This document shows, piece after piece, positions 1,526 through 63,175 of a stretch of 64,000 bases of DNA. Source of the stretch: a virus. Taxonomy: Duplodnaviria > Heunggongvirae > Uroviricota > Caudoviricetes. The stretch spans positions 55,003 through 119,002 of IMG/VR virus record IMGVR_UViG_3300021479_000008. One strand, 5' to 3'. Position 1 is the first letter of the stretch. Each line of letters opens with the position of its first letter. The notes beneath the pieces are model-generated. The model searched no databases. It saw only the letters and a program-made list of their open reading frames with translations, and had not been told where the DNA came from. A program made the translations under genes and the position numbers.

Positions 1526-4468
1526 TTATTTTCTGGCGTACTGAAGCGCCATATATTCGTCGTGAGAAATCTTGTGTTTCTTGCAGTATCTGTAGGCTTT
1601 CATCAATTTCTGATTTTCTCGGCACCATGCGTTCAGGAATTCTGGAATAGTCTTGATGTCTTCGCCTATGCCTTCTATCTGTACACCATACCTGAATCCA
1701 GCTTTCGGTTTTGCTTCGAGTGGTACCTTTTTCTTCAACTTAAAATCGTGTTCGATGATCCTAACTGGTTCCTTGACCATCAACTCATATCCCAACGGAA
1801 TGGCTTTCAACAGGTACTTCAACTTGACTCTGGCATACAACGCGTCGTGGACTTCTTTGACCAGATTCTTTAACAACTTGTATTTCTCCGGTTTACGTTC
1901 TATCGTTGCAACACTCATCGTAAGTATCTGATGTGCTGCACCTTGAATTGGGCTGTTGACACTTCTGTTCCAGTAACTCTTCCCAGCTTCTTCCTGTGCC
2001 TCCGTCATCAACTGGCGTTTGAATCCAAAGATGTTCGCGATGTACTTATGCTTCTCTACAAACTTACGATACCTATCCTGTAATTTCTTCACCCCCGGAA
2101 ATTTCTTAAAGTATGCTTCCAGCTGTTTGTTGATTTCTTTCAATGTCGTCTTTACACCTTTGGCTGTGACGAAATCAAATAAACCGGGACCCATCAACCC
2201 AAACACAATACCAAAATGGATGTTCTTGATCAACTTACGAAAACGATCGTTGTGGGCAATGATCTCTTTCCTCCATCCTGTTATCGCATGACCAACATCA
2301 ACGTGCGGATCTGGTTTATGCCACTTACCACAACCATGATTCTTCGGATTACAGAACCACTTCTTCTTGGATGAAAAAATACGTATCAGTTCTTTGTCGC
2401 CAGATTCTTCAGCTAGTTCTCGTAACTCATTCTGGGAGAAATCGTATCCAAGATAAACGTCGTAATCGGCGAACTGTTTCCACGTCTTATCGGTAAAGTC
2501 TCCGTGCTCCAACCAGTATTCATACAACTTCCACCAACGTTCGTCACTTACACTGACTTGTTTTATAAAAGGGTCACCATGAATATTCTGGAAGTTAATA
2601 ACATTGTCGTCTGTCCGTTCTTTACTCTTACCAGATGACATCCTACCTGTACTCGTGCCTGTCACTTTCCAGATTGTACGTAGGCGGCGATCATTGAGAT
2701 CAGCACAGTTTTTGTAACTATCCAACATACTAAGTGCTTTGTCTACTTCACGGAACTTCTTGACTGGTTTGAGCTTTTTGTGTTTCTGTTCTAGAATCTC
2801 CATCGTACCGGCACGAGTATTGGCTCCCGACTCCAGTGGCTCGATCCCAAGTTTTTCGTAGATCAACCACCACATCTGATCTGGCGATCCCGGATTCCAT
2901 TTCTTTTCTACCCACTTACCGGTCTTACGACTTTTGTATTTGACCTTTTTCGATCCAGCCAATTCTAACAACTGTTTCGATGCACGACGTTTACGGACTT
3001 TGAATAACGGCCGTATCTTCTTGTACCAACGATAATCAAAACACGGAAAGCATTCTCGGTCATGCTGCATCCTATACAATACTACACTGGCATCAATATA
3101 AACTCCCATCAACGGAGGATTACCGGCATGACGATTACCACGTTCTACTACCTTTTCAAGATGGCAGTCTGCTCCGTTGTACAACACCATCTTCTTCCAT
3201 GGAAGTCTTGCAAGATTCACTTTACCAGTTTTTTCGGCTTGATCTACTTTAGTCCAAGCATCACTTTTCTTAGTTTTTATGAACTCACGATACTTTAACG
3301 TAAGGCCTTCCGGATACTTGATGGCTTTGTATCCCATGTAGTCTGGATACTTACGATCGGAAATAGCTTCCAGTCCATAGGCTTTAGCATTCGGATCGAG
3401 GAAATATTCTCCGAGCAACGAATCGTACTGGGCTTTTACTGGAACACCAAGAAACCTGGTAGCGGAATCTGTATCGTGTGCCGCCATATGAGCCGATTTC
3501 CGTATCTTCGGATTCGTAAGAAGTTTTCGGAGCAACTTCTTATTCAACTCCCTAGCTGCTTGACTGGATCCTGAATCTGGGTGATCGACGGCAAAAGTAT
3601 AGCTCGTATCTTTCGTTTGACAGCCTATACAAAGTAATGCCCATTTTCCGTTGTCATCTGACTTACCGTGTTTGTCAAGCTTTCCTTCTTCCGTATCAAA
3701 GACTAAAGTATGACCACTCAACGCTTCTCGTTTCAAACGTCGGTAGGCGATACGGGCTTGCTTTCTAGTCGTGACTCCTCTTGAGTCCAATGTCTTGATG
3801 AAATAGAACTGGTCTCTGACGTTGTGCTTGCGCTTGAGAATGTTTCTGGCAGCATCTAGATCTGAACGGAAGCGTTTCAACGAATCATTGGCTGGCCTTT
3901 TGTCACCTGCGGAATAACCCTGCCGGATGAAATACGCGGGGTGATCTAAATAAACAACCCACGCTTTCAATGCTTCGGAAAAGAATACCCGCTTGTTATT
4001 GTTGAACTCTTTTCCGAGTACGGCTTTACCTGCTATCTGTCCGCATACTAAATGCAACCGTGCTTTGGATTTCTGTTTCGCTTGTTCCGTGTACAATGAA
4101 CAACACTTGATTTCTTCTTTAGTGGGAGTCCGCATCTTCAACGGAGGATATACATTTTTCATTACATCAACTGGAACGCACCTTACTACGTTCTGTATAT
4201 CTACCATATCTCGCGTGATGCCTACCCGCCTTAGTTCGTACCACAAAAACTTTCCGGCTGGACCAATAGCTTCCCGTCTCTTTTTATTCTCCTTCATTCC
4301 CGGTGATTGTAACCACACAAATATCTTACGTCCACGAACTTTGCCCATTATCTTATGAACACCATGTACTTTATCTAATGGACAGAAGTCGCACCCCTTT
4401 CCACGGAGTGGCTTTCCGGGTAATACATCTTCCGAACGTTGTATCTGGATAAGTGGGGTGAACGACAC
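1526..4468 (-). CDS. family A DNA polymerase with N-terminal family-4 UDG-like domain and 3'-5' exonuclease region
   Basis: Pol A motif A (YLGYDFSQNELRELAE), motif B-like (FGIVFGL) and motif C (VHDA). The N-terminus has GKGCDFCPL ... QSPGMKENKKRREAIGPAGKFL, resembling the UDG family 4 GEAPG...G.PF.G.AG..L pattern. Confidence 0.85.
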   Translation of the reverse strand: MSFTPLIQIQRSEDVLPGKPLRGKGCDFCPLDKVHGVHKIMGKVRGRKIFVWLQSPGMKENKKRREAIGPAGKFLWYELRRVGITRDMVDIQNVVRCVPVDVMKNVYPPLKMRTPTKEEIKCCSLYTEQAKQKSKARLHLVCGQIAGKAVLGKEFNNNKRVFFSEALKAWVVYLDHPAYFIRQGYSAGDKRPANDSLKRFRSDLDAARNILKRKHNVRDQFYFIKTLDSRGVTTRKQARIAYRRLKREALSGHTLVFDTEEGKLDKHGKSDDNGKWALLCIGCQTKDTSYTFAVDHPDSGSSQAARELNKKLLRKLLTNPKIRKSAHMAAHDTDSATRFLGVPVKAQYDSLLGEYFLDPNAKAYGLEAISDRKYPDYMGYKAIKYPEGLTLKYREFIKTKKSDAWTKVDQAEKTGKVNLARLPWKKMVLYNGADCHLEKVVERGNRHAGNPPLMGVYIDASVVLYRMQHDRECFPCFDYRWYKKIRPLFKVRKRRASKQLLELAGSKKVKYKSRKTGKWVEKKWNPGSPDQMWWLIYEKLGIEPLESGANTRAGTMEILEQKHKKLKPVKKFREVDKALSMLDSYKNCADLNDRRLRTIWKVTGTSTGRMSSGKSKERTDDNVINFQNIHGDPFIKQVSVSDERWWKLYEYWLEHGDFTDKTWKQFADYDVYLGYDFSQNELRELAEESGDKELIRIFSSKKKWFCNPKNHGCGKWHKPDPHVDVGHAITGWRKEIIAHNDRFRKLIKNIHFGIVFGLMGPGLFDFVTAKGVKTTLKEINKQLEAYFKKFPGVKKLQDRYRKFVEKHKYIANIFGFKRQLMTEAQEEAGKSYWNRSVNSPIQGAAHQILTMSVATIERKPEKYKLLKNLVKEVHDALYARVKLKYLLKAIPLGYELMVKEPVRIIEHDFKLKKKVPLEAKPKAGFRYGVQIEGIGEDIKTIPEFLNAWCRENQKLMKAYRYCKKHKISHDEYMALQYARK

Positions 4469-5604
4469 TAGTTCGTCTCCTGTTTACTTGTGACACACAA
4501 CCAATACTTCCCGGCTGTGATATAACTTACACCATGCTTTTGATCGACACGTACAACCATTCCTTGTTTTTTCGTTTTACTTACCAAGAAGCCAAACACA
4601 GGCTCTAAGCTGTCCAGAGGCCAATTTACCTTCAACGAAGCTGGTAGATGCTTTACTATCGGTAACCATTCCTTAAATCTAACACCCGGTAGATTAGTGG
4701 TTACCTGGAGGAGATTATCTCCCTTACTACCACGTACATTCACGACCCAGTCTTTTCTTTGTGCCCCTTGGAGATAATAACCAAGCCTCAACATGATGCG
4801 AGACATTCTACGCGACGAGGCGGTAAAACTGACTGGGAATGTTTCTGACTTCTTTGCGTTCTTGGTTATCTCGCGAAGGGGAAATTTCTCTATCGCGGCT
4901 TCACTGACTGGTTGCCACAATACTCCACGATCGAACTTCAGGACTACATACTTCCCTATCCAGTTTACACTTTTAAGTCCTGTCTCTGTTAGTAGACGTA
5001 TCATCTGGAGTGGGAACGGGATTGACGATTTAAGCTTACTCTTTTCTGGATCCCCCGTACCGAAATAATATACCCTGTCAGACGCGGCGTAGGCTTTGAT
5101 GGCTGCTGAACCTTTTCTAAGATAGACGCAGCTAAGGTACGGGACCATCGTATCACTGACAGCACAATTCTGTCCGCAGGTTAATAACGCGCGTACATCG
5201 TCGGTAATTGGTACAACACTTTCTTTTTCTTTGAGAATACGTTTGAGATCACCGTATCCGACTATGTCTTGCTGGGATTGGAATTCCGCGGAACGGGAAC
5301 CATGCTTAACGGTTAATTGTTTCTTATGGAAAGTGAACTCGAATAATGCTTTATTCTTGAGTGCTCTGGATGCATACACAAAGGGAGTGAAGAGTCTACG
5401 ATCTATAAAAAATTCACCTTCCCACTTTCCGTCTCCGTTTATACCTACTTCTCCCATGATATACGAAGCGACTGCAATCGTTATCTTCGATCCTTTTCCC
5501 CGTATCCATAAAAATTCACTGGAAGATAATCCTACCTTCTCGGGTATCAAGTCCAACAAGTGTAAAGCGGAAATTAAACGGCTACGTCTTATTGTCCACA
5601 TCAT
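4468..5604 (-). CDS. hypothetical protein (replication-module accessory, possible processivity factor)
   Basis: 378-aa ORF translationally coupled to the polymerase gene. No recognisable motif. A role as a processivity factor is suggested only by its size and position. Confidence 0.4.
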   Translation of the reverse strand: MMWTIRRSRLISALHLLDLIPEKVGLSSSEFLWIRGKGSKITIAVASYIMGEVGINGDGKWEGEFFIDRRLFTPFVYASRALKNKALFEFTFHKKQLTVKHGSRSAEFQSQQDIVGYGDLKRILKEKESVVPITDDVRALLTCGQNCAVSDTMVPYLSCVYLRKGSAAIKAYAASDRVYYFGTGDPEKSKLKSSIPFPLQMIRLLTETGLKSVNWIGKYVVLKFDRGVLWQPVSEAAIEKFPLREITKNAKKSETFPVSFTASSRRMSRIMLRLGYYLQGAQRKDWVVNVRGSKGDNLLQVTTNLPGVRFKEWLPIVKHLPASLKVNWPLDSLEPVFGFLVSKTKKQGMVVRVDQKHGVSYITAGKYWLCVTSKQETN

Positions 5605-6758
5605 AAATTTATTGTTGTTCCTACTACACTTTTATCTTTAGCCAAGGAAAGAAACTCAGCACGAACTGTTGGGTTTGTTTTGAATATTCCGTCAAGACTG
5701 GATGTCTCTACAAAACTGTCTGGTTGATTTACTCCACGCATTATCATACAATAATGTCTTCCAGTGACTATACATCCAGCTCCTTTGCATCCCTTAAGAG
5801 TCATAAGAGCTTGCGTAACATCTTGAGTAAACCGTTCTTGTATTACAGGGCGGCGTGCTAATATAGTAACCAGCCGCGACAATTTCGATAACCCCAATAC
5901 ACGTCCACCTTTACTTTTTGATGGTATATACGCAACTGTTACGTGATAATCAACTGGAAGCAGGTGATGGGGACACATCGAAAAAGCACGTATATTTTTA
6001 CTCAAGATCATTTGACTATTTGTGCAAGGAAAACCTTCCATTAAAATATCTTTTACTTGACCGTCTGTATCTTTCACCCCCTCAAATATCTCAGCATACG
6101 CACGTGCCACTCGTTTGGGAGTTGCCTTAAAATTCTCATCTTTCAAATTCAACTTAAAAGCTTGCTTCAAACCTTTGAAAATATAATGTACTCCTTTTTC
6201 GATATTTCTAATACCAAAAAACTTTGCTTTGGCTTTGTCTTGCTCGGCATGTAACTTTCTGTGACAAACATTACACAAGACTGCCAAATTTTCAATAGCA
6301 TTATTACCTAATTCTGTAGATATGTTTACTCCATCTCTATGGTGAACATGGAACTCACGCCTATGTAAATCTTTTTTAGTAATACCACAGCGTTCACAAA
6401 CATATCCGTAATGTTTTAACGCCCTTTTTCTATATCCAGTATATTCTTCTCTTCGCATTTCGCGTTGCTTGGGATCCTTAAACTGGAGAATGGCGTCTTG
6501 CTTTCTTTTTTCCATTAACTGGCGAGCTTTTTTCTTACCGAATTGTTGTTCATAACTTTTTCCTCTTGTAGCTATTCCGCGAATATATTCTAAATACTCG
6601 CAATCAAGTTTAGCTCCGGGGAATTTTTTCTTATACTTTCTACTACTAATACCATGCATATATCTCAAATGGGTATTAGTAATACGTTCAAACTTTTTCT
6701 TACACAACTTACAACGAACATATTTCTTTAATTTTAGATTCTCTAAATTAACTAGCAT
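5601..6758 (-). CDS. folE: HNH endonuclease domain fused to GTP cyclohydrolase I (FolE)
   Basis: C-terminal half has FolE motifs (FSMCPHHLLPV, YIPSKS, GLSKLSRLV, ARRPVIQERFT). N-terminal ~190 aa carries an HNH motif (HVHHRDG ... NLAVLCNVCHRKLH). No internal Met precedes the FolE core, so this is probably a true fusion. Confidence 0.75.
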   Translation of the reverse strand: MLVNLENLKLKKYVRCKLCKKKFERITNTHLRYMHGISSRKYKKKFPGAKLDCEYLEYIRGIATRGKSYEQQFGKKKARQLMEKRKQDAILQFKDPKQREMRREEYTGYRKRALKHYGYVCERCGITKKDLHRREFHVHHRDGVNISTELGNNAIENLAVLCNVCHRKLHAEQDKAKAKFFGIRNIEKGVHYIFKGLKQAFKLNLKDENFKATPKRVARAYAEIFEGVKDTDGQVKDILMEGFPCTNSQMILSKNIRAFSMCPHHLLPVDYHVTVAYIPSKSKGGRVLGLSKLSRLVTILARRPVIQERFTQDVTQALMTLKGCKGAGCIVTGRHYCMIMRGVNQPDSFVETSSLDGIFKTNPTVRAEFLSLAKDKSVVGTTINL

Positions 6759-7114
6759 ACGACTATGGCTCCGTTCTCGCCGTCTTCTGAGACTTCCACT
6801 GAATGTATCTTGTATGTTCCATCTGCTTCGACGAATGAGATTATGTCTTCAGCGATCATCTCACATGACTTTGCACCAAACTGGTGTATAGAACTTCCAC
6901 CGGAGAACAGCTCATCTACTCTTTCACGAAGAGTAATAAATTCAACGTCACGATCATTATGCCCTACTTGCACTGTTACCTTTACGTGGAACTCATGCCG
7001 ATGATTATCGCGCAAATACTTAACTTCACTGGGTGCATCCGGCCATCTATGAAAACCTACAAATCGTGTCGTACAGTACACATACGTTTTTGCGTCTAGC
7101 ATTATTTCCTCCAA
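6752..7114 (-). CDS. queD: QueD-like 6-carboxy-tetrahydropterin synthase (PTPS family)
   Basis: ~116-120 aa with the His-rich zinc motif (DNHRHEFHVKV) typical of QueD/PTPS. The likely true start is the ATG at 7102, with a GGAGG RBS and a promoter copy immediately upstream. Confidence 0.7.
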   Translation of the reverse strand: MEEIMLDAKTYVYCTTRFVGFHRWPDAPSEVKYLRDNHRHEFHVKVTVQVGHNDRDVEFITLRERVDELFSGGSSIHQFGAKSCEMIAEDIISFVEADGTYKIHSVEVSEDGENGAIVVC

Positions 7115-7116
7115 GC

Positions 7117-7129
7117 TTATTATACAGAA
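7117..7129 (-). promoter_or_regulatory. extended -10 promoter copy 3 (TTTCTGTATAATAAGCTTGGAGG cassette)
   Basis: Perfect TGTATAAT followed by AAGCTTGGAGG and the ATG of queD. The 23-nt cassette is identical to copy 4. Confidence 0.6.
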
Positions 7130-7138
7130 ATGGAAAAG

Positions 7139-8119
7139 CTAAACAGCAAGACTCTGCCAGCGCGTTTTTCCCGAGCGTACAACCTCTTTCAAATGCTGGA
7201 TACGGTTACAGAATATGTATACGTTGTACATTGATCTGGCTGCCCCGTCTGTCAACAGTTGCTTCGGATCGAATCCATTGTCCTCGATCTCATGGTTTAT
7301 CTCACGCTGTTTATTCTTCGGAAGATCGAGATACTCTATACCACGTCCTTGACCATGCCTACGATCACTAAGATGAATATACCCAAACGTATCGTTAACA
7401 CCCGCACTGGTACTAAGAATACAACCGAATGCCGCGACTTTGGCCCACGTCGCACTGTCGACCGAGTACCATTCGTACCCATACATTAACGAAAGACTCG
7501 TAACCGCCAGACCGTGGAGCAGCACTCCATACTTAGCCGCAATATTAAAACACCTGTCGTAATAATACCGCATGTACTTATTACTACGTTTGACCGATCC
7601 TAGACAGATCAACTTATGTCCTTCCTCACAATACCTTTTCAACCACTCATCTGGCTGGTCACCGTGATATACCGGTACTGGACGAATACCCAGTTTCTCT
7701 AACTGTTTCTGCATCGCATAGATAACCGGACAGTCTCGGACGTAATCAAAATTCACAACGAAGTCCCATTTCTTTCCTTCTTTCAAAACATACTGGGCAT
7801 AGGTCTCAACTACCTTATCACGAAGCTTATCCGTATCTTTCACACTCCACTTACCACTTTTCTTTCTCAGACCCAATACCTTCAGCTTATGGAACGAATG
7901 TGCCGCGGAATCCATCATTACACCCATTCCTTTTTTCTCGGCAATCTTCAACGATTCGGCTATTTTCTTACTGTAGTAGAATCCATCCGGCGAAGTGTAT
8001 GCGTAACTGAAACAGCGGTATTTGGCTCCGTTTTTGATGAAAGCATCTTCACCCATTCCAGACGAGCCCACTCCGGAGAAATACAACAGAGGACGTTCTT
8101 CTTTCAGATGTAATTTCAT
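7139..8119 (-). CDS. dpdA: tRNA-guanine transglycosylase superfamily protein, DpdA-like (putative DNA 7-deazaguanine transglycosylase)
   Basis: 326 aa. MMDSAAHSF resembles the TGT DSGGFQ motif, LHGLAVTSL resembles GGLAVGE, and YSVDSATW sits at the position of the second catalytic Asp. The TGT CxCxxC zinc site is absent. Lies among FolE and QueD. Confidence 0.5.
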   Translation of the reverse strand: MKLHLKEERPLLYFSGVGSSGMGEDAFIKNGAKYRCFSYAYTSPDGFYYSKKIAESLKIAEKKGMGVMMDSAAHSFHKLKVLGLRKKSGKWSVKDTDKLRDKVVETYAQYVLKEGKKWDFVVNFDYVRDCPVIYAMQKQLEKLGIRPVPVYHGDQPDEWLKRYCEEGHKLICLGSVKRSNKYMRYYYDRCFNIAAKYGVLLHGLAVTSLSLMYGYEWYSVDSATWAKVAAFGCILSTSAGVNDTFGYIHLSDRRHGQGRGIEYLDLPKNKQREINHEIEDNGFDPKQLLTDGAARSMYNVYIFCNRIQHLKEVVRSGKTRWQSLAV

Positions 8120-8120
8120 A

Positions 8121-8801
8121 TCACCTACACTGGAACAACGGTCTCGCGTCTCGGTCGTCGAACTTAAGTAAGTCGCGTACTAACTGCGGTGCTTTAATCA
8201 AAGGCTTGTACCACGACTTATGTAAGTAGGCTTGAAACAAATTCTCTCGTAACTCAGGATACGGGTATATAATTACGTCATCGAATCCAGCTGGAGATAG
8301 AAGATTATCTATGATCCACATATTCGGTCTATTTCCCATATCCGTTAGCGGGGTCGTTCCTTCACGTTGGACTTCATTTGGCAGAGCGATTTCAAACCAC
8401 AACGTATCAGTCTTTTCACGGATCACGGAAAGTATATCTACGGCCGCTTGTAGTCCTATCTTGTCCTGCTGGTAACAACCCATGTCTACCAACACATGAT
8501 GGAGAACAGCTAATAAAAGCACACAATCACATTTGCCTAATGACTTTATCTGTTCAAAAGATATTCTGGAACAAATGAATGGAATGTCTTTGTACTTATT
8601 TCTTGCGACTAGAAGTGATAATAGGTCAGAATCAATACCTACAACGTTTGCACCAGCCTGTTTCAATGCATTAGTTACATATCCTTTACTACAACCAATA
8701 TCGAGAACGTTCTTATCCTGGAAGTTATAATGATCTAGCATTGTCTGGATACGGGCATTACTTCGACGCTGATAATTTTTCTGCACAATGCATCCTCGCA
8801 A
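8121..8801 (-). CDS. class I SAM-dependent methyltransferase
   Basis: Motif I VLDIGCSKG, acidic motif II (VVGIDSD) and motif IV-like (VLLLAVLHH). The track start is a TTG. An ATG at about 8741 is the more likely start. Confidence 0.7.
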   Translation of the reverse strand: MRGCIVQKNYQRRSNARIQTMLDHYNFQDKNVLDIGCSKGYVTNALKQAGANVVGIDSDLLSLLVARNKYKDIPFICSRISFEQIKSLGKCDCVLLLAVLHHVLVDMGCYQQDKIGLQAAVDILSVIREKTDTLWFEIALPNEVQREGTTPLTDMGNRPNMWIIDNLLSPAGFDDVIIYPYPELRENLFQAYLHKSWYKPLIKAPQLVRDLLKFDDRDARPLFQCR

Positions 8802-9402
8802 GATTATCTATGCTATTGGGAGTAAAGCTCCACCATACAATCTTCTTTTTATCTATTAACTGCAACATACCTGTGATCATCCAAGCAATACCCTCACGTA
8901 CGTTCTTATTCATAAATCTATGCCCGTTATCTACGTACGGAGCGTCAGTATCAAGATGAATAAGTACATCATAATCAAATGTGTGATTCAAACTTTTCAT
9001 TACCAATTCTTCCAACTCTTTCTGTGGTGCGTCTTGTCCACACAAATACAATCCACAAGCGGCACGAACTAACGATGCACTATCGGCTACGAAATCTTTT
9101 TTACCATTCTCCAGCTCAAACTGGGCTTCATGCATCGCTTTCTCGAACTCAAACTTCAGTTTTATACCCCAAGCGTTCCAACGATACTCTGCCCATTCTT
9201 CTCCGTATTTCTTGACTACTCCCTCATACGGATCTGGTATATGTTCTACACTGAGCTTTTCAGCCAGAAGTTTTGACATCGTTGTCTTTCCCGTACACTC
9301 CGCTCCAACGAATGCTATTTTCATAAACCCCTCAACTGAACCAATCGAGAAACGATTTGATTGTGTATCATAGCTGGTGATCGAACTGTACACTTGGCAC
9401 AT
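8758..9402 (-). CDS. P-loop NTPase (kinase-like)
   Basis: Walker A GAECTGKTT. The likely start is MKIAFVG at about 9324, overlapping the upstream stop by 4 nt. The fold resembles small nucleoside/nucleotide kinases. Confidence 0.5.
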   Translation of the reverse strand: MCQVYSSITSYDTQSNRFSIGSVEGFMKIAFVGAECTGKTTMSKLLAEKLSVEHIPDPYEGVVKKYGEEWAEYRWNAWGIKLKFEFEKAMHEAQFELENGKKDFVADSASLVRAACGLYLCGQDAPQKELEELVMKSLNHTFDYDVLIHLDTDAPYVDNGHRFMNKNVREGIAWMITGMLQLIDKKKIVWWSFTPNSIDNLARMHCAEKLSASK

Positions 9403-10313
9403 TGACCATGTAACGGCCTTCCTTCTACCTCGTGTTCCATCATCTCGTGGCGCAAAGTCTTAACTATGTGATTGTTCCAGATTTCTTCGAGACTCTGCTC
9501 GTAAAGATTCCCATAGTAATTGATCTCTTCCTTTCTGGGAGTAAAAATCATGCAACAACTCACCACGTCCCCGTTATGTGCTATACTGACTGACGTAAAT
9601 GGGTTCAAGCACAAACCAAGGTGACTAGTTGCTTCGTTAATACCACTGATGCCTACTCTATCTTGCATTCCCTCGAAACAATCGTAGATCGTACGTACTA
9701 CGGCGAAACGATCCCACCCTTTTTCTTTCATGACTTGCTGCAACGCTTCCAGATCACCACTCTTTTCTACCAACGGTGTTTTCACCAACTGGAGTTCGAT
9801 CATTGGAATACGACCATGAGCTAGATTCTTTCTGGCTTCGATGAACTTGAAAAACTTATCGAGATTACGGTATAGGTCTTTCAAATGTGCGGGGAAGCGC
9901 ATCCTGTGGTATGTCTCAGGATCGACAGAATCGACTGAGATCGTTAACGCATCTAACATTCCCAACGTAACGTCTATGCTTGGTTTTTCCATACTCAAGC
10001 CATGAGTAGAAAGACCTACCAAGACTCCAACTTCATGCTTTAGGTAATTTACTATCTCGAACAACTTTGGATGCAACGTAGGTTCTCCGGCCATCTGCAA
10101 TTCGATGTAATGACTACCACCAAAGTCCCCGCGTTCTTTCATCAGCTTCAACAACTTCATATCAACAAGGCCCGGTTGACGGCCTAGATGTGTACTGCGC
10201 AGGCACATTGGACATTCTAAGTTACAGGCTGAACACGTTTCGATGTTGGAAATTTCTGGTAAGTGTTTGAAACTTTGTCCTTCACTATGCTGATACGTAT
10301 TTATCCCTTCCAA
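9321..10313 (-). CDS. radical SAM enzyme with C-terminal SPASM/twitch-like Cys cluster
   Basis: CSACNLECPMC is a CxxxCxxC motif and AGEPTL is a GGEP-type SAM motif. C-terminal Cys cluster (CC...C...C). TTG start with a GGAGGT RBS. Does not look like a canonical QueE. Confidence 0.7.
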   Translation of the reverse strand: MEGINTYQHSEGQSFKHLPEISNIETCSACNLECPMCLRSTHLGRQPGLVDMKLLKLMKERGDFGGSHYIELQMAGEPTLHPKLFEIVNYLKHEVGVLVGLSTHGLSMEKPSIDVTLGMLDALTISVDSVDPETYHRMRFPAHLKDLYRNLDKFFKFIEARKNLAHGRIPMIELQLVKTPLVEKSGDLEALQQVMKEKGWDRFAVVRTIYDCFEGMQDRVGISGINEATSHLGLCLNPFTSVSIAHNGDVVSCCMIFTPRKEEINYYGNLYEQSLEEIWNNHIVKTLRHEMMEHEVEGRPLHGQCAKCTVRSPAMIHNQIVSRLVQLRGL

Positions 10314-10789
10314 GTCTTACCTCCATTCAAACGTCGGTAAACATTAGCTACAGCTATATCAAACTTTTTGGCTAAATCATGAACTGTATACTTACTACTA
10401 TTCCACATCTTCTTCATTTTACGTAACTTTTTAGTGGTTAATTTGCCTCGTGCTATTACACCATTATCAGCGGCATGTTGTTGATTACCCTTTGGGGTAA
10501 TATATTCTAAATTATCTGAACACGCATTCGATTTATCCAAATCTTTATGATTTATTTCCATTCCTTTTGGACGTGGGCCTATGAATTTTCGTGCAACTAA
10601 TCTATGTACTGGAATATATCTTGTCTTGCCATATATACTTACACTAACTTTCAGATATCCATCTTTATCGAAATATCCGGTAAGAATCTTACCAACGCGT
10701 GTACCATTACCTGGTTTAGCTCGGCGGATTCTACCTAAATTGGAGACTTCGTAGTAACCCCTAAGGCAAGCCTTCCATTGTTCTTTCAC
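10301..10789 (-). CDS. HNH homing endonuclease (NUMOD4/HNH_3 type)
   Basis: YEVSNLGRIR N-terminal motif and INHKDLDKSNxxxxNLE...N HNH motif. Confidence 0.75.
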   Translation of the reverse strand: MKEQWKACLRGYYEVSNLGRIRRAKPGNGTRVGKILTGYFDKDGYLKVSVSIYGKTRYIPVHRLVARKFIGPRPKGMEINHKDLDKSNACSDNLEYITPKGNQQHAADNGVIARGKLTTKKLRKMKKMWNSSKYTVHDLAKKFDIAVANVYRRLNGGKTWKG

Positions 10790-11835
10790 ACAGTCTCCAA
10801 AATATCAAATAGATCTTCGAAAAACGAATCGTCAATCAATTTTTGATGGAATTGACTTTTGAATGGTGTATGTTCAGCTATATGCTTAAAACCAGAATCA
10901 CGCGTTACTACATCGCGTAACTTATCACAAAGATCGGAATATCCACGATAGCGAAATGGATCACGAAATATTTCCCGGTATGCCAGACGATCTGGCACAA
11001 TAGGATAACATCCCAACATCACAGCTTCGATCATACTTATACCAAACATTTCAAGCAAAGCCGTAGAAACAACAACTTTTGACTTCGCCAATAACTGGTA
11101 GTAACTTCGCTTATCAAGTTTTTCATCACGTGTACGTACAGCGATCCAATCTTTAGGTAGAATTTTTTCGTCGTGGATCAGCTTACGAAACAACTCAGGC
11201 TGTTTGTCTTCGGTGAGGCGATGCGGAAAGACTACTATGTTCTCTTTTTTACTTGGATATTCTAACAACTCTTTTGGTACTTCTACCTTCCAAGGAATAA
11301 CTTCAATTTTATGGTTTGGAATTATACGAGTTTCCAACAATACCCGTTCGTGGTATTCTGAGGCGACGACTACCCTATCGTAGATCTTGAACCAGGCGTT
11401 TTCTAGTTCCTCCCCCCACACATACATATTACTACGTGTAACAAAATCCCACACGTCCCAATTACCGTCATGGAACAACCCGACGAATCTCCAGTCGTGA
11501 CATTTCAATCCGTCACGTATGTAGGCTAACTGTTCTACTGGGAACCATCCATCCTGGAAAAGGAATACAACGCGTTCGTTACGGGGAATCGTACCGTCGT
11601 CTATTAACTGGCAGATACGTTGAATCTGACTAGCTTTAGCGTAGTGCGTTCCAACCACGTCTAGAAAAGCCCCATCTTTTATTTCTGATCGTAGCGTAGA
11701 TGGATGTATCGGAATCGTTGTATATCCCTTCTTGCACAACTCAACGTGAAACCAGTTTGCCCACTGAGCACTATACCGACTTTCTAACTCCTCAATTGGA
11801 ACATTTACTACGATCATGTTTCCTCCAGAAATCAA
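10786..11835 (-). CDS. GT-B fold glycosyltransferase (GT4/GT1-like)
   Basis: EMFGISMIEAVMLGCYPIV matches the E-x7-E nucleotide-sugar-binding motif of GT4 enzymes. The likely ATG start is at about 11817 (GGAGGAAAC-ATG). Confidence 0.6.
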   Translation of the reverse strand: MISGGNMIVVNVPIEELESRYSAQWANWFHVELCKKGYTTIPIHPSTLRSEIKDGAFLDVVGTHYAKASQIQRICQLIDDGTIPRNERVVFLFQDGWFPVEQLAYIRDGLKCHDWRFVGLFHDGNWDVWDFVTRSNMYVWGEELENAWFKIYDRVVVASEYHERVLLETRIIPNHKIEVIPWKVEVPKELLEYPSKKENIVVFPHRLTEDKQPELFRKLIHDEKILPKDWIAVRTRDEKLDKRSYYQLLAKSKVVVSTALLEMFGISMIEAVMLGCYPIVPDRLAYREIFRDPFRYRGYSDLCDKLRDVVTRDSGFKHIAEHTPFKSQFHQKLIDDSFFEDLFDILETV

Positions 11836-12031: not shown

Positions 12032-12625
12032 TTATTCTCTTGTCCACTTCTTATCGCCAACTTTGTAATTACTGACACGAAGCCGGCCGTGAGAGTCATC
12101 CACGTCCCACTTCCAGCCTTTGGAATGACCCTTACGCAGACCACGAATAATAAACACGGGATTGCCGCCTGCCTTCTCGATAAACTTCTTGAGTTTCTTT
12201 AGATCGACTCCGCCTTTAACGGCTGCCTGTTTGAATGCTTGACCCAATATGGATTCGTCCTGGTAAGGTATCTTCCACGTCATCCACTGAGCGCCTTTTG
12301 GTCCCCGCTTTTTCCCCGACTTGCCTTTCTTTTCTTTCTTTTCTTTTTTCTCTTTCTCAGGCTTATCCTTTTTCTTCTTTTTATCTTTCTTTCCTTTCTT
12401 CACCTTTTTCTCCTTCTTGTGTTTCTTCTTTTTCTTGTCCTTCTTCTTAGCGTGTTCGGATTCACTTTCTGATTCTTCTTCCTCTTCTGATTCTTCGGCC
12501 TGACTTTCTGATTCAGATTCACTTTCTACTTCGGACTCATCTTCATCGTGCGCCATATTTTCTCCTTTAGAGTTTATGTCTAATAAACAACCTACAAAAT
12601 CTTTCGTCCCCACAGTTACTACCAC
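12032..12625 (-). CDS. highly charged protein (acidic Glu/Ser-rich N-terminus, Lys-rich centre, conserved C-terminal domain)
   Basis: Low-complexity stretches ESESESE and KKKDKKKKKHKKEKK. The likely start is MAHDEDE at about 12556. The composition suggests DNA-binding or histone-like behaviour. Confidence 0.45.
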   Translation of the reverse strand: MVVTVGTKDFVGCLLDINSKGENMAHDEDESEVESESESESQAEESEEEEESESESEHAKKKDKKKKKHKKEKKVKKGKKDKKKKKDKPEKEKKEKKEKKGKSGKKRGPKGAQWMTWKIPYQDESILGQAFKQAAVKGGVDLKKLKKFIEKAGGNPVFIIRGLRKGHSKGWKWDVDDSHGRLRVSNYKVGDKKWTRE

Positions 12626-12791
12626 ATGCTATTGAATCTGGATCGTACTTACGTTCTTTTCCAAAACACAATAGCTTTGACTTGGCACGTTCCTTGTAAC
12701 AACTAAAACATATACTGGTAGATGGGAAATACAACCCATTCTTAACGTCATCTACCGTATACCTTACTGAACACAACAAACATGGAAACAT
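12567..12791 (-). CDS. small Cys-rich hypothetical protein
   Basis: 74 aa with 8 Cys; possible zinc ribbon. Confidence 0.35.
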   Translation of the reverse strand: MFPCLLCSVRYTVDDVKNGLYFPSTSICFSCYKERAKSKLLCFGKERKYDPDSIACGSNCGDERFCRLFIRHKL

Positions 12792-13055
12792 CTATTCCTC
12801 TTCATCTGACGCTTCATCTGTAGGATCGTCTGGTGTAACCTTTAACCAACCGAAACCTATTACATGACCATCATCTGAAAACTCGACTGACCATCGTCTC
12901 GTATCTTGGTCTGGAAACATTGGCCTATACTTCCCTTTCAACTCAGCCTCAACTGCTTTGGATGCGACTGACTCTTTTTGTGCTTTCTCTCTAGCTGCTA
13001 GTAGCTTTACATGATCAGCTTCATCCATCTTCAATACTCTGTGTGCTCGTCTCAT
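12792..13055 (-). CDS. hypothetical protein
   Basis: 87 aa with an acidic C-terminus. Confidence 0.4.
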   Translation of the reverse strand: MRRAHRVLKMDEADHVKLLAAREKAQKESVASKAVEAELKGKYRPMFPDQDTRRWSVEFSDDGHVIGFGWLKVTPDDPTDEASDEEE

Positions 13056-13064
13056 ATTTTTCTC

Positions 13065-13370
13065 CTACGAAAGATGCTTACTCAATGGCTTACCCATCTC
13101 CGTCATATAGATCGAACCTGCACTGACACGAATTGTCTTTCCACGCATCTTAAACTTACGCTTCTTGGCAATTGCCTTCTTGAACAACGCTGTCAGCTTA
13201 TCATCACAATCGATGATTCGTTTATCCTCCTTGCTCTGGAGACGGTGCTTCTTGATGTACTTCCAAAGCAACTTCATCATCTTTCCACGTGAGATTTTCT
13301 TTTCCTTGATTACATCTCGTAGCTCCGGCGAACACTTCATTTCCTTCATCAAACCTTTTCCTTTTGCCAT
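13065..13370 (-). CDS. SWIB/MDM2 domain protein
   Basis: SPELRDVIKEKKISRGKMMKLLWKYIKKHRLQ...IIDCDDKLTALF matches the SWIB domain consensus (LSPELAxxLG...R.EVVKKLWxYIKxxNLQ...I.CDxKLKxLF). Confidence 0.7.
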   Translation of the reverse strand: MAKGKGLMKEMKCSPELRDVIKEKKISRGKMMKLLWKYIKKHRLQSKEDKRIIDCDDKLTALFKKAIAKKRKFKMRGKTIRVSAGSIYMTEMGKPLSKHLS

Positions 13371-13981
13371 TACTCCTCCTCTTCGTCTTCGGATTCACTC
13401 GCGTCATCATCTCCATCGTTACTAATTGCTTCGGCTTTTACAACACCATCAATTACGTCGTTCTCGAACTTCGGTTCATCCCACACTTCAATATAGTAAC
13501 GTTCTTGTTCTAGCTCGGCAACTAAAAACGGATCGGGCATTGGCTGATACGACAGTTCATCAACTTTAAAACTGACATACGGAACAACGTCTTTGATCTC
13601 CAATGCCTTTTGGAGTACAAATTCTGGAATTGGCTTCTTGTACTTCGTGATATCTGTCATACTCCAAGCTACACGGAACTTGTAATGCTTGCCACTTCGT
13701 TGCAGATGTTTTTCGGCTTCTTTCAACTTTTGTTGTTTGTACTCACTGATGCTTCGATTGGAGAATGGTTCGATACCAAGCTTCAATAACGCACGAGCCA
13801 ACACTTTCGGTTTGTGTAACACCTGGGATAGAACAGTATACCCCAACTTATCGTGCGCTCGACGTGCTAGTGAACGGACCTGTTTCTTAACTTCGGGGAT
13901 TACAACTTCACCACGAACTAGAATACTACTTACACTTTTCATACTTCCTCCTATTGAATTTGACCTATAACTGGCATACAC
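13370..13981 (-). CDS. hypothetical protein with acidic C-terminal tail
   Basis: 203 aa. The C-terminus is DDDASESEDEEEE. Confidence 0.4.
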   Translation of the reverse strand: MYASYRSNSIGGSMKSVSSILVRGEVVIPEVKKQVRSLARRAHDKLGYTVLSQVLHKPKVLARALLKLGIEPFSNRSISEYKQQKLKEAEKHLQRSGKHYKFRVAWSMTDITKYKKPIPEFVLQKALEIKDVVPYVSFKVDELSYQPMPDPFLVAELEQERYYIEVWDEPKFENDVIDGVVKAEAISNDGDDDASESEDEEEE

Positions 13982-48816: not shown

Positions 48817-49124
48817 CTTCGGCTCCTAGGACTCAAGATTCTTTCGTTGAACTGTTCATCGGTCTCACCGACTACACGTTGATGTTTTTGACTGTACCGT
48901 TCGCATTCTGGATGGAACTTACACCCTTGTCCAAATGGATGTGATTCGTGATGACAACCACAATCACACAAGTAAGAATGCTCAATCCCACATACTGAAC
49001 ACGAATACTTGATTGGGAGTGGGTTGTACGATGCTGTTTGCCTGCGTTTACGTGGTTTGAGACGAATACTTTTCCGTTTATAGTGGTTTTGGTGGTTGGA
49101 GTGGTTTTTACGTGCTAACGGCAT
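48813..49124 (-). CDS. Cys/His-rich zinc-finger-like protein; N-terminus encoded by the 59-bp repeat
   Basis: CSVCGIEHSYLCDCGCHHESHPFGQGCKFHPEC. The N-terminal NHQNHYKRKSIRLKPRKR is encoded by repeat copy B. Confidence 0.45.
   Translation of the reverse strand: MPLARKNHSNHQNHYKRKSIRLKPRKRRQTASYNPLPIKYSCSVCGIEHSYLCDCGCHHESHPFGQGCKFHPECERYSQKHQRVVGETDEQFNERILSPRSRR
49042..49100. repeat. 59-bp element, copy B (near-identical to 27391..27449)
   Basis: See copy A. Confidence 0.7.
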
Positions 49125-62672: not shown

Positions 62673-63175
62673 GTCTTGTTATGCACAATATTCCAAATAT
62701 TAGCCTGGGTAACACTGAACTTTTTACCAAGGCGTTTTTGTGTATAATGTTTTTCATTATACAAATATCTAATCTTTTCCACAACTTCTTTTGTCAGCTT
62801 TGAACTGGGATTATCTATACCGTATAACGTTTTTCTTCTACCTTTACGCAACATATCTTGCATATTCTGGGTATGGGTACCTAACCACAAATGATATGGA
62901 TTAACACACTTAGTATTATCACAAGAATGGCATACATCTAAACCTTTTCTTCTACCAACAAACAACTCATACGAAGCTATGTGTGCATACTGAATATGTT
63001 TCTCTGTCCAACAAAAATAACCATATCCATCATCACGAATTGATCCTTGCCATTCCCAACACTCATCTTCCTCCCCAAAGTGAACTAATTTAAGAAAACG
63101 TTTGAATACTAAATACTTACCATAGCGAGGAAAATCTAATCTAATACGGCGTTTAATTTTTGAAATGCCGGCCAT
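62663..63175 (-). CDS. HNH endonuclease (paralog of 915..1499) adjacent to terL
   Basis: CWEWQGS ... GYGYF ... CHSCDNTKCVNPYHLWLGTHTQN ... RKGRR. Confidence 0.75.
   Translation of the reverse strand: MAGISKIKRRIRLDFPRYGKYLVFKRFLKLVHFGEEDECWEWQGSIRDDGYGYFCWTEKHIQYAHIASYELFVGRRKGLDVCHSCDNTKCVNPYHLWLGTHTQNMQDMLRKGRRKTLYGIDNPSSKLTKEVVEKIRYLYNEKHYTQKRLGKKFSVTQANIWNIVHNKTWA

Follow-up and report, generated by a model that had tools for sequence, protein, structure and literature searches.

Among the nearest known systems is the dDG pathway of Cellulophaga phage phiST, in which 100% dDG is reached with FolE, QueD, QueE, DpdL and DpdA3 (Cui/Hutinet et al., NAR 2023, PMC10516641). dDG was not formed in E. 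coli by the dpdA and dpdL genes of Acidovorax phage ACP17 alone (PMC10516641), and the DNA of Pseudomonas jumbo phage PA5oct withstands G-site restriction enzymes and behaves as G-modified (PMC12191111). In the huimycin pathway, the GT4-family protein HuiG (PF13439) glycosylates N2 and HuiC (PF08241) methylates O6 of free 7-deazaguanine (PMC7439116); glycosylation at N2 indicates that a deazaguanine base can be the acceptor of a glycosyltransferase (GT).

The locus studied here is located in a window of 64,000 nt (the whole stretch of DNA that was analysed) from an uncultivated phage with a circular genome of ~118.9 kb. Together with FolE, DpdL and DpdA it encodes a glycosyltransferase (GT4w), a radical SAM enzyme (rSAM), a P-loop NTPase (AAA_28) and a methyltransferase, four proteins that, as the initial annotation pointed out, are outside the dPreQ0, dADG, dG+, dPreQ1 and mdPreQ1 routes, and that are also outside the fdPreQ1, dDG and dCDG routes. 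On gene content we lean, with clear reservations, towards a DpdL-type 7-deazaguanine pathway in which the base would be glycosylated and the sugar then tailored.

Architecture of the gene block

The eight open reading frames of the block were all found to be real and to lie on the minus strand at positions 5601-11835. Overlaps of 4 nt (GT/HNH), 13 nt (HNH/rSAM), 4 nt (rSAM/AAA_28), 29 nt (AAA_28/methyltransferase) and 7 nt (DpdL/FolE) were observed, and the methyltransferase and DpdA genes are separated by a 1-nt gap. Terminator-like sites were looked for on the minus strand inside this region and none was present. Domain, family and fold matches bore out the initial reading of the block as a DpdA-centred 7-deazaguanine DNA-modification block.

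DpdA and the supply of the deazaguanine precursor

The 326-aa protein encoded at 7139..8119 (minus strand), previously described as a TGT/DpdA-like protein lacking the zinc site, matched phrog_887 (3.9e-31) and, by tblastn, annotated phage DpdA genes, including that of 9g (4e-17); a Pfam search of this protein gave no match. The 27 best PDB matches obtained by Foldseek with its AlphaFold model (pLDDT 87.5) were all Zymomonas TGT (E 2.4e-6, TM ~0.5). Residues D70, S71, D125 and D221 were invariant in 35 homologues, and the CxCxxC zinc motif was sought and found to be absent. The protein is thereby confirmed to belong to the TGT superfamily, within the DpdA family of DNA guanine transglycosylases. 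No similarity to the phiST DpdA3 was detected; the protein resembles DpdA1/2 and is not of the DpdA3 subfamily.

The adjacent gene (6752..7102, minus strand) was called as 116 aa, the longest ORF (120 aa) starting at 7114. The 120-aa protein had been taken for QueD, which was rejected since L-RDN-HRH-E-F replaces CxxxHGH and the PTPS match falls under the Pfam cut-off (E 0.0027). Its sequence YLRDNHRHEF fits LxxxHRHxF, the signature of DpdL (PMC10516641), and the protein matched phrog_17812 (2e-25) and showed 37% identity to phiST CGPG_00067 and 35% to the ACP17 DpdL. The so-called QueD is therefore DpdL, which has a T-fold and for which decarboxylation of 7-carboxy-7-deazaguanine has been proposed; this role is a proposal from the literature (PMC10516641), and it was counted against the glycosylated-base reading. 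The true, canonical QueD gene of this genome lies ~5 kb past the end of the window (L009:4360-4923; PF01242, 1.6e-28).

The FolE gene (5601..6758, minus strand) encodes a fusion, as initially stated, with the HNH domain at aa 121-172 (PF01844, 1.2e-6) in frame with FolE at aa 200-373 (PF01227, 1.1e-50; NCBIfam NF006826, 7.9e-52, over its cut-off). In relatives, FolE is a separate protein of 196-215 aa. Canonical QueC and QueE, which had not been recognised previously, were both absent from the 64-kb window, and no QueE was present in the 84 kb examined of the 119-kb genome.

GT4w and its co-occurrence with DpdL

The gene at 10786..11817 (minus strand; 343 aa as called, with the longest ORF starting at 11835) was correctly recognised at the outset as a GT4 glycosyltransferase. 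The protein, a retaining GT-B enzyme, matched PF00534 (7.7e-7) and PF13439 (3e-4), contained the invariant motif E256-x7-E264, and its AF2 model (pLDDT 93.4) gave LmbT, BshA, MshA, GlgM and SenB as best Foldseek matches.

Among 80 viral loci anchored on DpdA, GT4w was found in 20 of the 25 DpdL-positive loci and in none of the 55 that were DpdL-negative (Fisher 1.5e-14). The census comprised 44 DpdL+GT4w lineages (GT4w below 60% identity between lineages), with loci that are phylogenetically non-independent and an rSAM-anchored set skewed towards rSAM. It gave a BtrN-like radical SAM enzyme in 27 lineages, a different one (rSAM2) in 9, one of these two families in 36/44, QueE nearby in 36/44 and the AAA_28 NTPase in 5. 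The gene set was constant and its order shuffled, GT4w adjoining DpdA in 22/46 arrangements and frequently overlapping the dpdA start. A GT4w-anchored search of 185,579 species genomes returned short MAG contigs only, in which the visible neighbours were again DpdL, DpdA or rSAM. GT4w thus accompanies DpdL almost constantly in modules of the DpdA1/2 type, and its family is essentially restricted to DpdL/DpdA-type viral contexts. It adjoins DpdL in ACP17, PA5oct, Phosso and BUCT-ZZ01, and the GT4w-DpdL-QueE unit is present in the cultured phages ACP17 and PA5oct. Dozens of viral contigs that are unrelated to one another thus combine GT4w and the sugar-oxidising-type rSAM with DpdL and DpdA, which suggests that the DNA base is probably decorated with a sugar. 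Several observations were counted against this reading: QueE did not turn up in the 84 kb examined, phiST forms plain dDG with DpdL and no GT, some isolates (Roos, Bakedbeans, RHph_I1_18 and MA9V-3) carry DpdL without GT4w, in three relatives of this phage (L015, L096/L016, L097) the GT-rSAM pair is found at a distance from DpdA, and the structural neighbours of GT4w act on small molecules, so that GT4w might not act on DNA at all.

Alternatively, the DNA product might be plain 2'-deoxy-7-deazaguanosine, with GT4w, rSAM, AAA_28 and the methyltransferase directed at some other target (for instance a protein of the virion, a glycan of the host or a further metabolite) and having no more than an early-gene neighbourhood in common with the pathway. 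phiST attains its dDG without any GT, the GT-rSAM pair may stand apart from DpdA as just described, and the genome holds several further GT genes, namely a GT9-like gene (49115-50023) and, both in L009, a GT2 gene and a 739-aa GT1-like gene. We nevertheless regard this explanation as unlikely, given the absence of GT4w from DpdL-negative loci and from QueC-type clusters, its persistence with DpdL and DpdA through 44 lineages of shuffled gene order, its confinement to such viral contexts and the failure of the ACP17 dpdA and dpdL genes alone to yield dDG. As for the suggested contribution of the GT9 gene, nothing ties it to the module, and its GT9 match is sub-threshold (E 0.005).

The lack of QueC and QueE in the window had suggested that host preQ0 might be inserted by DpdA and the resulting dPreQ0 hypermodified by the methyltransferase, NTPase, rSAM and GT. 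Every DpdA tested to date inserts preQ0 (PMC10516641), and huimycin is itself preQ0 tailored by a GT and a methyltransferase (PMC7439116). This route is nonetheless very improbable here. Apart from the reassignment of the supposed QueD to DpdL, QueC was mutually exclusive with both DpdL and GT4w over the 80 DpdA-anchored loci, and in close relatives the same slot is occupied by QueC or DpdL, never by the two together. With QueC excluded and QueE usually there, the branch point appears to be CDG and not preQ0.

A pterin-derived product had also been considered. A glycosylated pterin (cyanobacterial biopterin glucosides are known pterin glycosides) or a deazapurine small molecule is conceivable as the product of FolE, a PTPS-like T-fold protein and a GT, or DpdA might act on tRNA; moreover, small molecules are the substrates of the structural neighbours of GT4w. 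We consider it scarcely credible that the block has no DNA product. DpdA is present in nearly every module and its nearest characterised relatives modify DNA; PA5oct, which bears the GT4w-DpdL-QueE unit, shows G-specific restriction resistance; and the presence of QueD and QueE alongside the module in the majority of lineages speaks against a pterin.

Radical SAM enzyme, AAA_28, methyltransferase and HNH insert

The radical SAM gene (9321..10313, minus strand) encodes a protein matching PF04055 (2e-11) and PF13186 (SPASM, 4e-12), with invariant cysteines C30/C34/C37 and C235/C253/C305/C308. Its profile matched BtrN in the PDB at 2.8e-16, with the four auxiliary cysteines aligned, and QueE at just 6e-4, so that its identification as QueE was rejected. 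The earlier view that it is not a canonical QueE was right, and the cluster then called SPASM-like is a four-cysteine site of the twitch type. Of its strong homologues in IMG/VR, 24/28 lie beside DpdL and GT4w. The enzyme is a BtrN-like twitch enzyme with an auxiliary [4Fe-4S] domain, of the sugar/cyclitol alcohol-oxidising type, and its predicted role is in sugar oxidation or tailoring.

GT4w and rSAM might instead make or deliver the base, for example through a transient, nucleoside-like glycosyl carrier of CDG or DG on which DpdL and DpdA would then act, leaving dDG or a small sugar-free derivative in DNA. The kinship of GT4w with the small-molecule enzymes LmbT, BshA, MshA and SenB, that of AAA_28 with nucleoside and nucleotide kinases, and the insufficiency of dpdA and dpdL in E. 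coli are compatible with this. It seems to us rather improbable, as such a carrier is without precedent in deazaguanine pathways and phiST manages without GT4w. In addition, the BtrN-like rSAM, rSAM2 and an X-domain are interchangeable as third component, which looks like a decoration diversifying and less like an essential core step.

AAA_28 (8758..9324, minus strand), initially described as a kinase-like P-loop NTPase, is NadR-kinase-like and matched PF13521 (2e-12) and phrog_2107 (6.8e-14). An orthologue fills the equivalent slot in L014, and an AAA_28 protein (PF13521, 5e-11) lies between GT4w and DpdA in L098-L102, L116 and L123. It is a recurrent optional partner, mostly adjoining DpdA, and may be a kinase or ATPase cofactor.

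The class I SAM-dependent methyltransferase (8121..8786, minus strand), also correctly called, matched PF08241 (9.5e-9) and PF13489 (1.2e-8), its best PDB match being the methyltransferase domain of WbdD (2.3e-5). It was rejected as DpdM, which is DUF3109. No homologue was found in 50,697 phage records, and among ~160 loci it was present in this phage alone; it is a lineage-specific add-on. The proposal that the GT, rSAM, NTPase and methyltransferase are tailoring enzymes of the pathway thus gains from the recurrence of the first two with DpdL and DpdA, and is weakened for the methyltransferase.

The internal gene at 10301..10789 (minus strand) does encode an HNH endonuclease, of the NUMOD4/HNH_3 homing type (PF13392, 2e-11; PF07463, 6.5e-7; phrog_59, 9e-39). 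It is missing from the corresponding GT/rSAM position in L013 and L014, and the window has paralogues of it at other places, as do relatives. It is a selfish mobile insert and not a pathway enzyme.

Proposed pathway

By homology, FolE converts GTP into H2NTP, and the canonical QueD from outside the window makes CPH4. Following the family literature, QueE, from the host or the remaining 35 kb of the genome, would make CDG, from which DpdL, according to its proposed activity, would remove the 7-carboxyl to give 7-deazaguanine. DpdA, again by homology, puts the modified base into DNA in exchange for guanine. The conserved neighbourhood and fold of GT4w suggest that it puts a sugar on the deazaguanine, before or after insertion into DNA. 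The C7 freed by DpdL would be the most economical acceptor, since the association of GT4w with DpdL, and never with QueC, would then be accounted for; the alternative is N2, as in huimycin. On similar grounds, the BtrN-like rSAM may oxidise or remodel a hydroxyl of this sugar. AAA_28 and the methyltransferase could provide further lineage-specific decoration in this phage, or AAA_28 may serve as an ATPase helper of DpdA. G would then be partly or wholly replaced by glycosylated 7-deazaguanine, which would shield the phage DNA from host nucleases. No description of a glycosylated purine analogue in DNA was found within the searchable literature.

Comparison with known systems

This phage shares with phiST the FolE, the LxxxHRHxF DpdL, the lack of QueC and a TGT-superfamily transglycosylase beside replication genes. 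It differs in possessing GT4w, the BtrN-like rSAM, AAA_28 and the methyltransferase, all four absent from phiST, and in its non-DpdA3 transglycosylase, remote QueD and the QueE not found in 84/119 kb. In ACP17 (gp119-gp126) and PA5oct (gp162-gp168), GT4w (30-31% identity to this phage) is directly beside DpdL (28-35%) with QueE close, whereas the BtrN-like rSAM, AAA_28 and methyltransferase are lacking and the product of the gene upstream of GT4w has diverged too far to match the DpdA profile built here.

The dPreQ0/dG+ systems of the Queuovirinae 9g and CAjan have in common with this locus FolE, a homologous DpdA (~26% identity, E 4e-17) and the logic of post-replicative base exchange. Their sets combine DpdA1 with FolE, QueD, QueE and QueC/Gat-QueC, without DpdL or a GT, and were mutually exclusive with the DpdL/GT4w sets in the census. 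In huimycin and dapiramicin, enzymes alike by Pfam family, a GT4-family GT and a class I methyltransferase, decorate 7-deazaguanine made by FolE, QueD and QueE; huimycin is however an actinomycete secondary metabolite, QueC-dependent, with no DpdA, DpdL, radical SAM tailoring enzyme or DNA involved. BtrN (2-deoxy-scyllo-inosamine dehydrogenase, 4M7T) has the CX3CX2C core and C-terminal twitch of the rSAM, ~25% alike where aligned, in the context of butirosin biosynthesis.

In the T-even phages, the base of glucosyl-hydroxymethylcytosine is a pyrimidine whose hydroxymethyl handle is made before replication and is used by alpha- and beta-glucosyltransferases, and GT4w folds closest to GT4 small-molecule enzymes, not to the T4 glucosyltransferases. 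The proposal for GT4w would nevertheless have the same outline, a phage GT-B enzyme placing a sugar on a non-canonical DNA base to counter restriction.

Organization of the gene block

The eight ORFs between positions 5601 and 11835 (minus strand) encode HNH-FolE, DpdL, DpdA, a methyltransferase, an AAA_28 NTPase, a radical SAM enzyme, an HNH_3/NUMOD4 endonuclease and a GT4-type glycosyltransferase (hereafter named, together with its homologues, GT4w). Each ORF abuts or overlaps its neighbour, in agreement with the contiguous block described in the initial annotation, and no minus-strand terminator-like sites were detected within 5601-11835 in a scan of the window. The block runs directly into a clamp-like gene (4468-5604) and then into a family-A DNA polymerase gene fused to a uracil-DNA glycosylase (1526-4468, minus strand). 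The minus strand carries all ORFs of substance in the 64-kb window, whose composition is uniform (GC ~41-50%). Exact-sequence look-up found the window in three independent assemblies, on contigs that are circularly permuted and 118,911-119,002 bases long, and coordinate arithmetic gave a genome of ~118,854 bp. No isolate comes near this phage: the block yielded no match by megablast against 50,697 phage records, and the identity of the terminase to that of any isolate is at most 28%.

Several other features of this genome were observed. The uracil-DNA-glycosylase domain of the polymerase (PF03167) is N-terminal and kept across the phage family; in the related contig L010 the polymerase ORF has 1345 aa, an insertion being possibly the cause. 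Downstream of the polymerase, two relatives (L007:18546-19034 and L012:17003-17584) encode a protein with the dGTP diphosphohydrolase N-terminal domain PF18909, which could deplete dGTP; the 162-aa protein in the equivalent position of the window phage (L004:19732-20220) had no detectable similarity to it. A 197-aa protein (12032-12625, minus strand), in which a Ser/Glu repeat of extreme acidity is followed by a stretch rich in lysine and by a C-terminal domain that is conserved, is also present upstream of the module in the relatives L007, L013 and L014. The structural region contains two adjacent giant ORFs (22546-27363 and 27466-32292, minus strand) of 1605 and 1608 aa. In one flank of the same genome (L008:14939-15205) the gene of an 88-aa PP-binding protein resembling acyl carrier proteins separates those of RecA and the clamp loader, as it does in L007.

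FolE, DpdL and the remaining precursor genes

FolE (5601-6758, minus strand) matched PF01227 at 1e-50 and scored over the cut-off of the NCBIfam FolE model. Its ORF carries in frame an N-terminal zinc-finger-like and HNH domain of ~190 aa, the HNH fusion having been annotated initially, and a stand-alone FolE of 196-215 aa is found in all relatives examined.

The initial annotation had the 120-aa protein of the block as QueD. The motif LxxxHRHxF, as opposed to CxxxHGH of QueD, separates the proposed 7-carboxy-7-deazaguanine (CDG) decarboxylase DpdL (Cui, Hutinet and colleagues, PMC10516641). The 120-aa protein contains the former as YLRDNHRHEF, with Leu in place of the catalytic Cys, and shares 37% identity with the DpdL of phiST and 35% with that of ACP17. 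Its PF01242 score was 18.1 bits, under the cut-off of 22.4, and no NCBIfam model matched. Judged by its sequence, this T-fold protein is DpdL, and the assignment as QueD had to be abandoned. The genuine QueD of the same genome was found ~5 kb past the 3' end of the window (L009:4360-4923; PF01242 1.6e-28, motif C-RYI-HGH). It adjoins a 739-aa GT1-like protein (L009:5163-7382) with a weak intein signal at the C-terminus and sits ~3 kb downstream of a GT2 gene (L009:573-1280); at least four putative glycosyltransferases are encoded in the phage genome.

QueC and QueE were searched for with Pfam in 20 further window proteins and in the precomputed annotation of the flanking 20 kb (±10 kb; L008 and L009). 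Neither QueE nor QueC was found in these 84 of 119 kb, and for the window, where HMMs built for this work were also used, the initial statement that they are not recognisable was confirmed. QueE may be encoded in the remaining ~35 kb (positions 15181-50326 of contig k141_5746251, ENA ERZ27253675) or be supplied by the host. Two metagenome scans were run for a QueE-bearing remainder of the genome; one gave no match, and the other gave an unrelated contig with the canonical QueE-QueD-QueC-FolE-DpdA set.

The transglycosylase DpdA

The 326-aa protein had been described as a TGT/DpdA-like transglycosylase without the TGT zinc site, and this description held. No Pfam model matched it, but it matched phrog_887, the PHROG of phage "queuine tRNA-ribosyltransferases", at 3.9e-31, and by tblastn it matched genes annotated as dpdA in 164 phage records, 9g among them. 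A search of PDB sequences with a profile built from 35 homologues gave no match even at E <= 1, so that a fold search was needed: with an AlphaFold model (pLDDT 87.5), the top 27 Foldseek matches were Zymomonas TGT (E 2.4e-6, TM about 0.5). The acidic and serine residues expected in the active site of a DpdA (DS..., ...VDS...) show little or no variation among the 35 homologues (D70, S71, D125, D221, S222), and we infer that the conserved Asp residues correspond to Asp102, Asp156 and Asp280 of TGT. The CxCxxC zinc motif is absent. The protein is a DpdA-type member of the TGT superfamily. Assignment to DpdA3 was rejected, as BLASTP against phiST CGPG_00065 (E 0.76) revealed no sequence relation.

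The glycosyltransferase GT4w

The domain match confirmed the glycosyltransferase (10786-11817, minus strand) as GT1/GT4. Its AlphaFold model (pLDDT 93.4) has a GT-B fold, and the nearest structures by Foldseek were LmbT, BshA, MshA, GlgM and SenB, retaining GT4 enzymes with small-molecule acceptors (E about 1e-9 and TM 0.6-0.68 for LmbT, BshA and MshA). T4 DNA glucosyltransferases were not among the 50 structural matches listed. The EX7E pair (E256/E264) is invariant. With this fold and this motif, GT4w is a retaining GT-B enzyme of GT4 type. The family comprises 692 representatives at 50% identity (E <= 1e-30) among 1.84 billion.

A second glycosyltransferase of GT9 type (49115-50023, minus strand) had been suggested as a contributor. 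This proposal was not sustained: the Glyco_transf_9 match is sub-threshold (E 0.005, 36 residues) and no link to the module was found.

The radical SAM enzyme

When a profile of 41 radical SAM sequences was compared with the PDB, the first match was BtrN (2.8e-16), the radical SAM 2-deoxy-scyllo-inosamine dehydrogenase, and QueE ranked 27th (6e-4). The invariant cysteines are C30/C34/C37 (CX3CX2C) and, at the C-terminal end, C235/C253/C305/C308, which align with the auxiliary-cluster cysteines of BtrN (CMVP...PCF...CKNC). On this alignment the protein is a BtrN-like enzyme of twitch type, a class whose members oxidise secondary alcohols on sugar-like rings. QueE was discarded as an identity, given the far better match to BtrN, the presence of the C-terminal four-Cys domain and the lack of any match of our QueE HMMs to the window's enzyme. 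The initial annotation was right that this is not a canonical QueE, but the Cys cluster that it called SPASM-like is of the four-Cys twitch type, the full seven-Cys SPASM pattern not being conserved.

A link to the radical SAM/glycosyltransferase cluster of Campylobacter phage CP220 was considered and dismissed, the only similarity, to the window's radical SAM enzyme, being too weak (E 3e-4, with 28% identity across 39% of the protein). The CP220 cluster (L003, 70690-79273) combines five genes for radical SAM enzymes with one amidinotransferase-like and two GT-A-like genes, and CP220 DNA is fully dADG-substituted.

Accessory genes of the block

Domain matches agreed with the initial description of the methyltransferase, the AAA_28 P-loop NTPase and the HNH_3/NUMOD4 endonuclease. 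The methyltransferase is not DpdM, a DUF3109/YkgJ-like preQ1 N-methyltransferase, since it belongs to the class I Rossmann enzymes and did not match DUF3109. Among solved structures it is closest to the methyltransferase domain of WbdD, a kinase-methyltransferase that caps a mannan; the match is weak (E 2e-5) and limited to the SAM-binding region, so that the idea of a kinase plus methyltransferase forming a methyl-phosphate was kept as a mere lead. AAA_28 might phosphorylate a hydroxyl of the sugar or, by analogy with DpdB, assist DpdA as an ATPase.

Neither the methyltransferase nor the internal HNH gene has a counterpart in the relatives L007, L013 and L014, which argues that the HNH gene is a selfish insert and the methyltransferase a private addition. 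At least four HNH/His-Me homing-endonuclease-like genes were observed in the 64 kb (915-1499, 10301-10789, 62663-63175 on the minus strand, and the FolE N-terminus). HNH paralogues occupy different positions in related phages, and homing elements thus appear to be active in the lineage.

Content of the same genomic slot in related phages

A scan of IMG/VR with the single DpdA protein gave no match, and the loci analysed here were obtained by alignment-based scans. DpdA homologues with 42-67% identity occupy the same position on contigs of phage size (94-127 kb), flanked by a SWIB-domain gene and by the clamp and polymerase genes. Two gene sets occupy this slot. The first, DpdL plus GT4w and sometimes the radical SAM enzyme, is present in the window, L007, L013 and L014; the second, QueC plus a GT2-like protein, in L010, L012 and L022. 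The two sets are never mixed in the relatives. GT4w orthologues in L007, L013 and L014 are 47-56% identical, radical SAM orthologues in L013 and L014 are 60-62% identical, and an AAA_28 orthologue occurs in L014. In the phages of the second set (L010:9207-10004 and 12684-13664; L012:5812-6723 and 8273-9226; L022) QueC is accompanied by a weakly GT2-like protein of 317-326 aa, and DpdA is 53-58% identical to that of the window. A module swap is seen here inside one phage family, with a putative glycosyltransferase adjoining DpdA in both versions.

Census of the module across viruses

All ORFs of 80 IMG/VR loci anchored on DpdA and of 48 anchored on the radical SAM enzyme were scanned with HMMs built for this work; the latter set inflates the share of that enzyme, and the loci are phylogenetically non-independent. 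Within the DpdA-anchored set 25 loci contained DpdL. GT4w was detected in 20 loci, each of them positive for DpdL, and in none of the 55 that lack DpdL (Fisher 1.5e-14, for loci that are not phylogenetically independent). QueC, present in 16 of the 80, was never found with DpdL or GT4w. Among radical SAM-anchored loci with a strong match to that enzyme, 24 of 28 had both DpdL and GT4w. The simplest account of this strict pairing, and of the exclusion of GT4w from QueC clusters, is that the sugar is attached where decarboxylation has left a free position.

Loci were collapsed into 44 lineages (GT4w <60% identity). The BtrN-like enzyme occurs in 27 of them, a share inflated by the radical SAM-anchored loci; a different radical SAM family takes the same place in nine, and eight have neither. 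QueE is nearby in 36 lineages, AAA_28 is present in five, and a ParB_N protein reminiscent of bacterial DpdB in nine. Gene order is strongly shuffled among lineages and the gene set persists, GT4w abutting or overlapping dpdA in 22 of 46 arrangements. A search of 185,579 species genomes with GT4w gave seven strong matches, all on short MAG contigs; wherever such a contig showed genes next to GT4w, these again encoded DpdL, DpdA or the radical SAM enzyme.

The second radical SAM family is unrelated to the first (307-498 aa, PF04055 8.5e-14). It was observed between DpdL and GT4w in L042 (7674-8996) and also in L044, L052, L061-L064, L067, L078, L079, L085 and L152, in lineages without the BtrN-like enzyme. 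A conserved domain of ~160 aa, the X-domain (FIGxExEGP...LFVPG...YYGAGN), was seen only in DpdL-GT4w modules without a radical SAM enzyme, either fused to DpdL (L036:7203-8042, L047:8079-8822, L084:7889-8785) or free-standing (L058:8372-8887 and L007:9534-10016, the latter a close relative). The one member scanned against Pfam, the free L007 copy, had no match; this domain may be a third alternative tailoring component. The ParB_N protein (L098:7387-8199; also L101, L102, L115, L116, L123, L131, L143 and L151) accompanies more divergent DpdAs in modules with DpdL, GT4w and the radical SAM enzyme.

In cultured phages, the isolates with a GT4w homologue (ACP17, the PA5oct group, Phosso, X1/BUDD, BCSR5 and BUCT-ZZ01) are almost exactly those with DpdL, the two genes being usually adjacent and QueE close by; of these isolates Phosso is a Sinorhizobium phage and X1 a Xanthomonas phage. 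DpdL without GT4w occurs in phiST and relatives, MA9V-3, Roos, Bakedbeans and RHph_I1_18, which indicates that the association belongs to DpdA1/2-like modules and not to every DpdL.

Proposed pathway and its implications

Homology assigns to FolE the conversion of GTP into H2NTP, to QueD that of H2NTP into CPH4, and to DpdA base exchange in DNA. Following the literature on their families, QueE would form from CPH4 the CDG that accumulates in E. coli ΔqueC, and DpdL, whose activity is a proposed one, would decarboxylate CDG to 7-deazaguanine. We further infer that GT4w would transfer a sugar onto the deazaguanine and that the BtrN-like enzyme would oxidise or remodel it. On chemical reasoning the acceptor would be C7, an electron-rich pyrrole carbon; N2 is an alternative, for which huimycin provides a precedent.

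We tentatively propose, at slightly less than even confidence, a widespread and virus-restricted pathway that places in phage DNA a glycosylated 7-deazaguanine with a C7- or N2-linked sugar, remodelled by a radical SAM enzyme, with DpdL exposing the attachment site. The same reading, held just as guardedly, would make the BtrN-like enzyme, the second radical SAM family, the X-domain protein, AAA_28 and the methyltransferase interchangeable components that give lineage-specific variants. Such variants, if real, would serve an arms race against modification-sensing nucleases, and with this product a purine analogue bearing a sugar would be known from a genome for the first time.

The observations of the initial annotation were largely right, save for QueD and the QueE/SPASM detail, and its interpretation was partly so. 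The finding outgrows it, as the "unusual tailoring enzymes" are a conserved, widespread module: the window belongs to an extensive gene set, nearly confined to viruses, in which DpdL and DpdA go together with a glycosyltransferase and radical SAM enzymes. This partnership may explain why dpdA plus dpdL of ACP17 gave no product in E. coli, and it offers a concrete hypothesis for the G modification of the culturable jumbo phage PA5oct. A new bulky G modification would be relevant to phage therapy, through evasion of restriction, CRISPR and END nucleases, as well as to sequencing artefacts and enzymatic DNA-labelling tools.

Comparison with known systems

To our knowledge, the eight 7-deazaguanine DNA modifications known all have small C7 substituents and none is glycosylated; we know of no glycosylated purine in DNA. 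Among 8 million full texts, a set exclusive of subscription-only papers, no publication was found that connects deazaguanine modification of phage DNA with a glycosyltransferase or with a radical SAM enzyme other than QueE. The words "glycosyl" and "sugar" are absent from the main text of the DpdL paper (PMC10516641). PA5oct DNA resists G-containing restriction enzymes, from which a modified G was inferred, its identity not being given (2025 preprint, PMC12191111).

In huimycin biosynthesis a free 7-deazaguanine is glycosylated at N2, the enzymes at work being a transferase of the GT4 family (PF13439) and a methyltransferase of PF08241 (PMC7439116); HuiG/HuiC share these two Pfam families with the window. 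The phiST branch, with DpdA3 and plain 2'-deoxy-7-deazaguanosine (PMC10516641; 266 Da neutral, seen in phiST as a peak of mass 267), shares with the window the DpdL motif and the absence of QueC (in 84 of 119 kb for our phage), but differs in its DpdA3. The core of FolE, QueD, DpdL and DpdA is an established system, whereas its extension by GT4w and the radical SAM enzyme, together with the predicted product, is undescribed.
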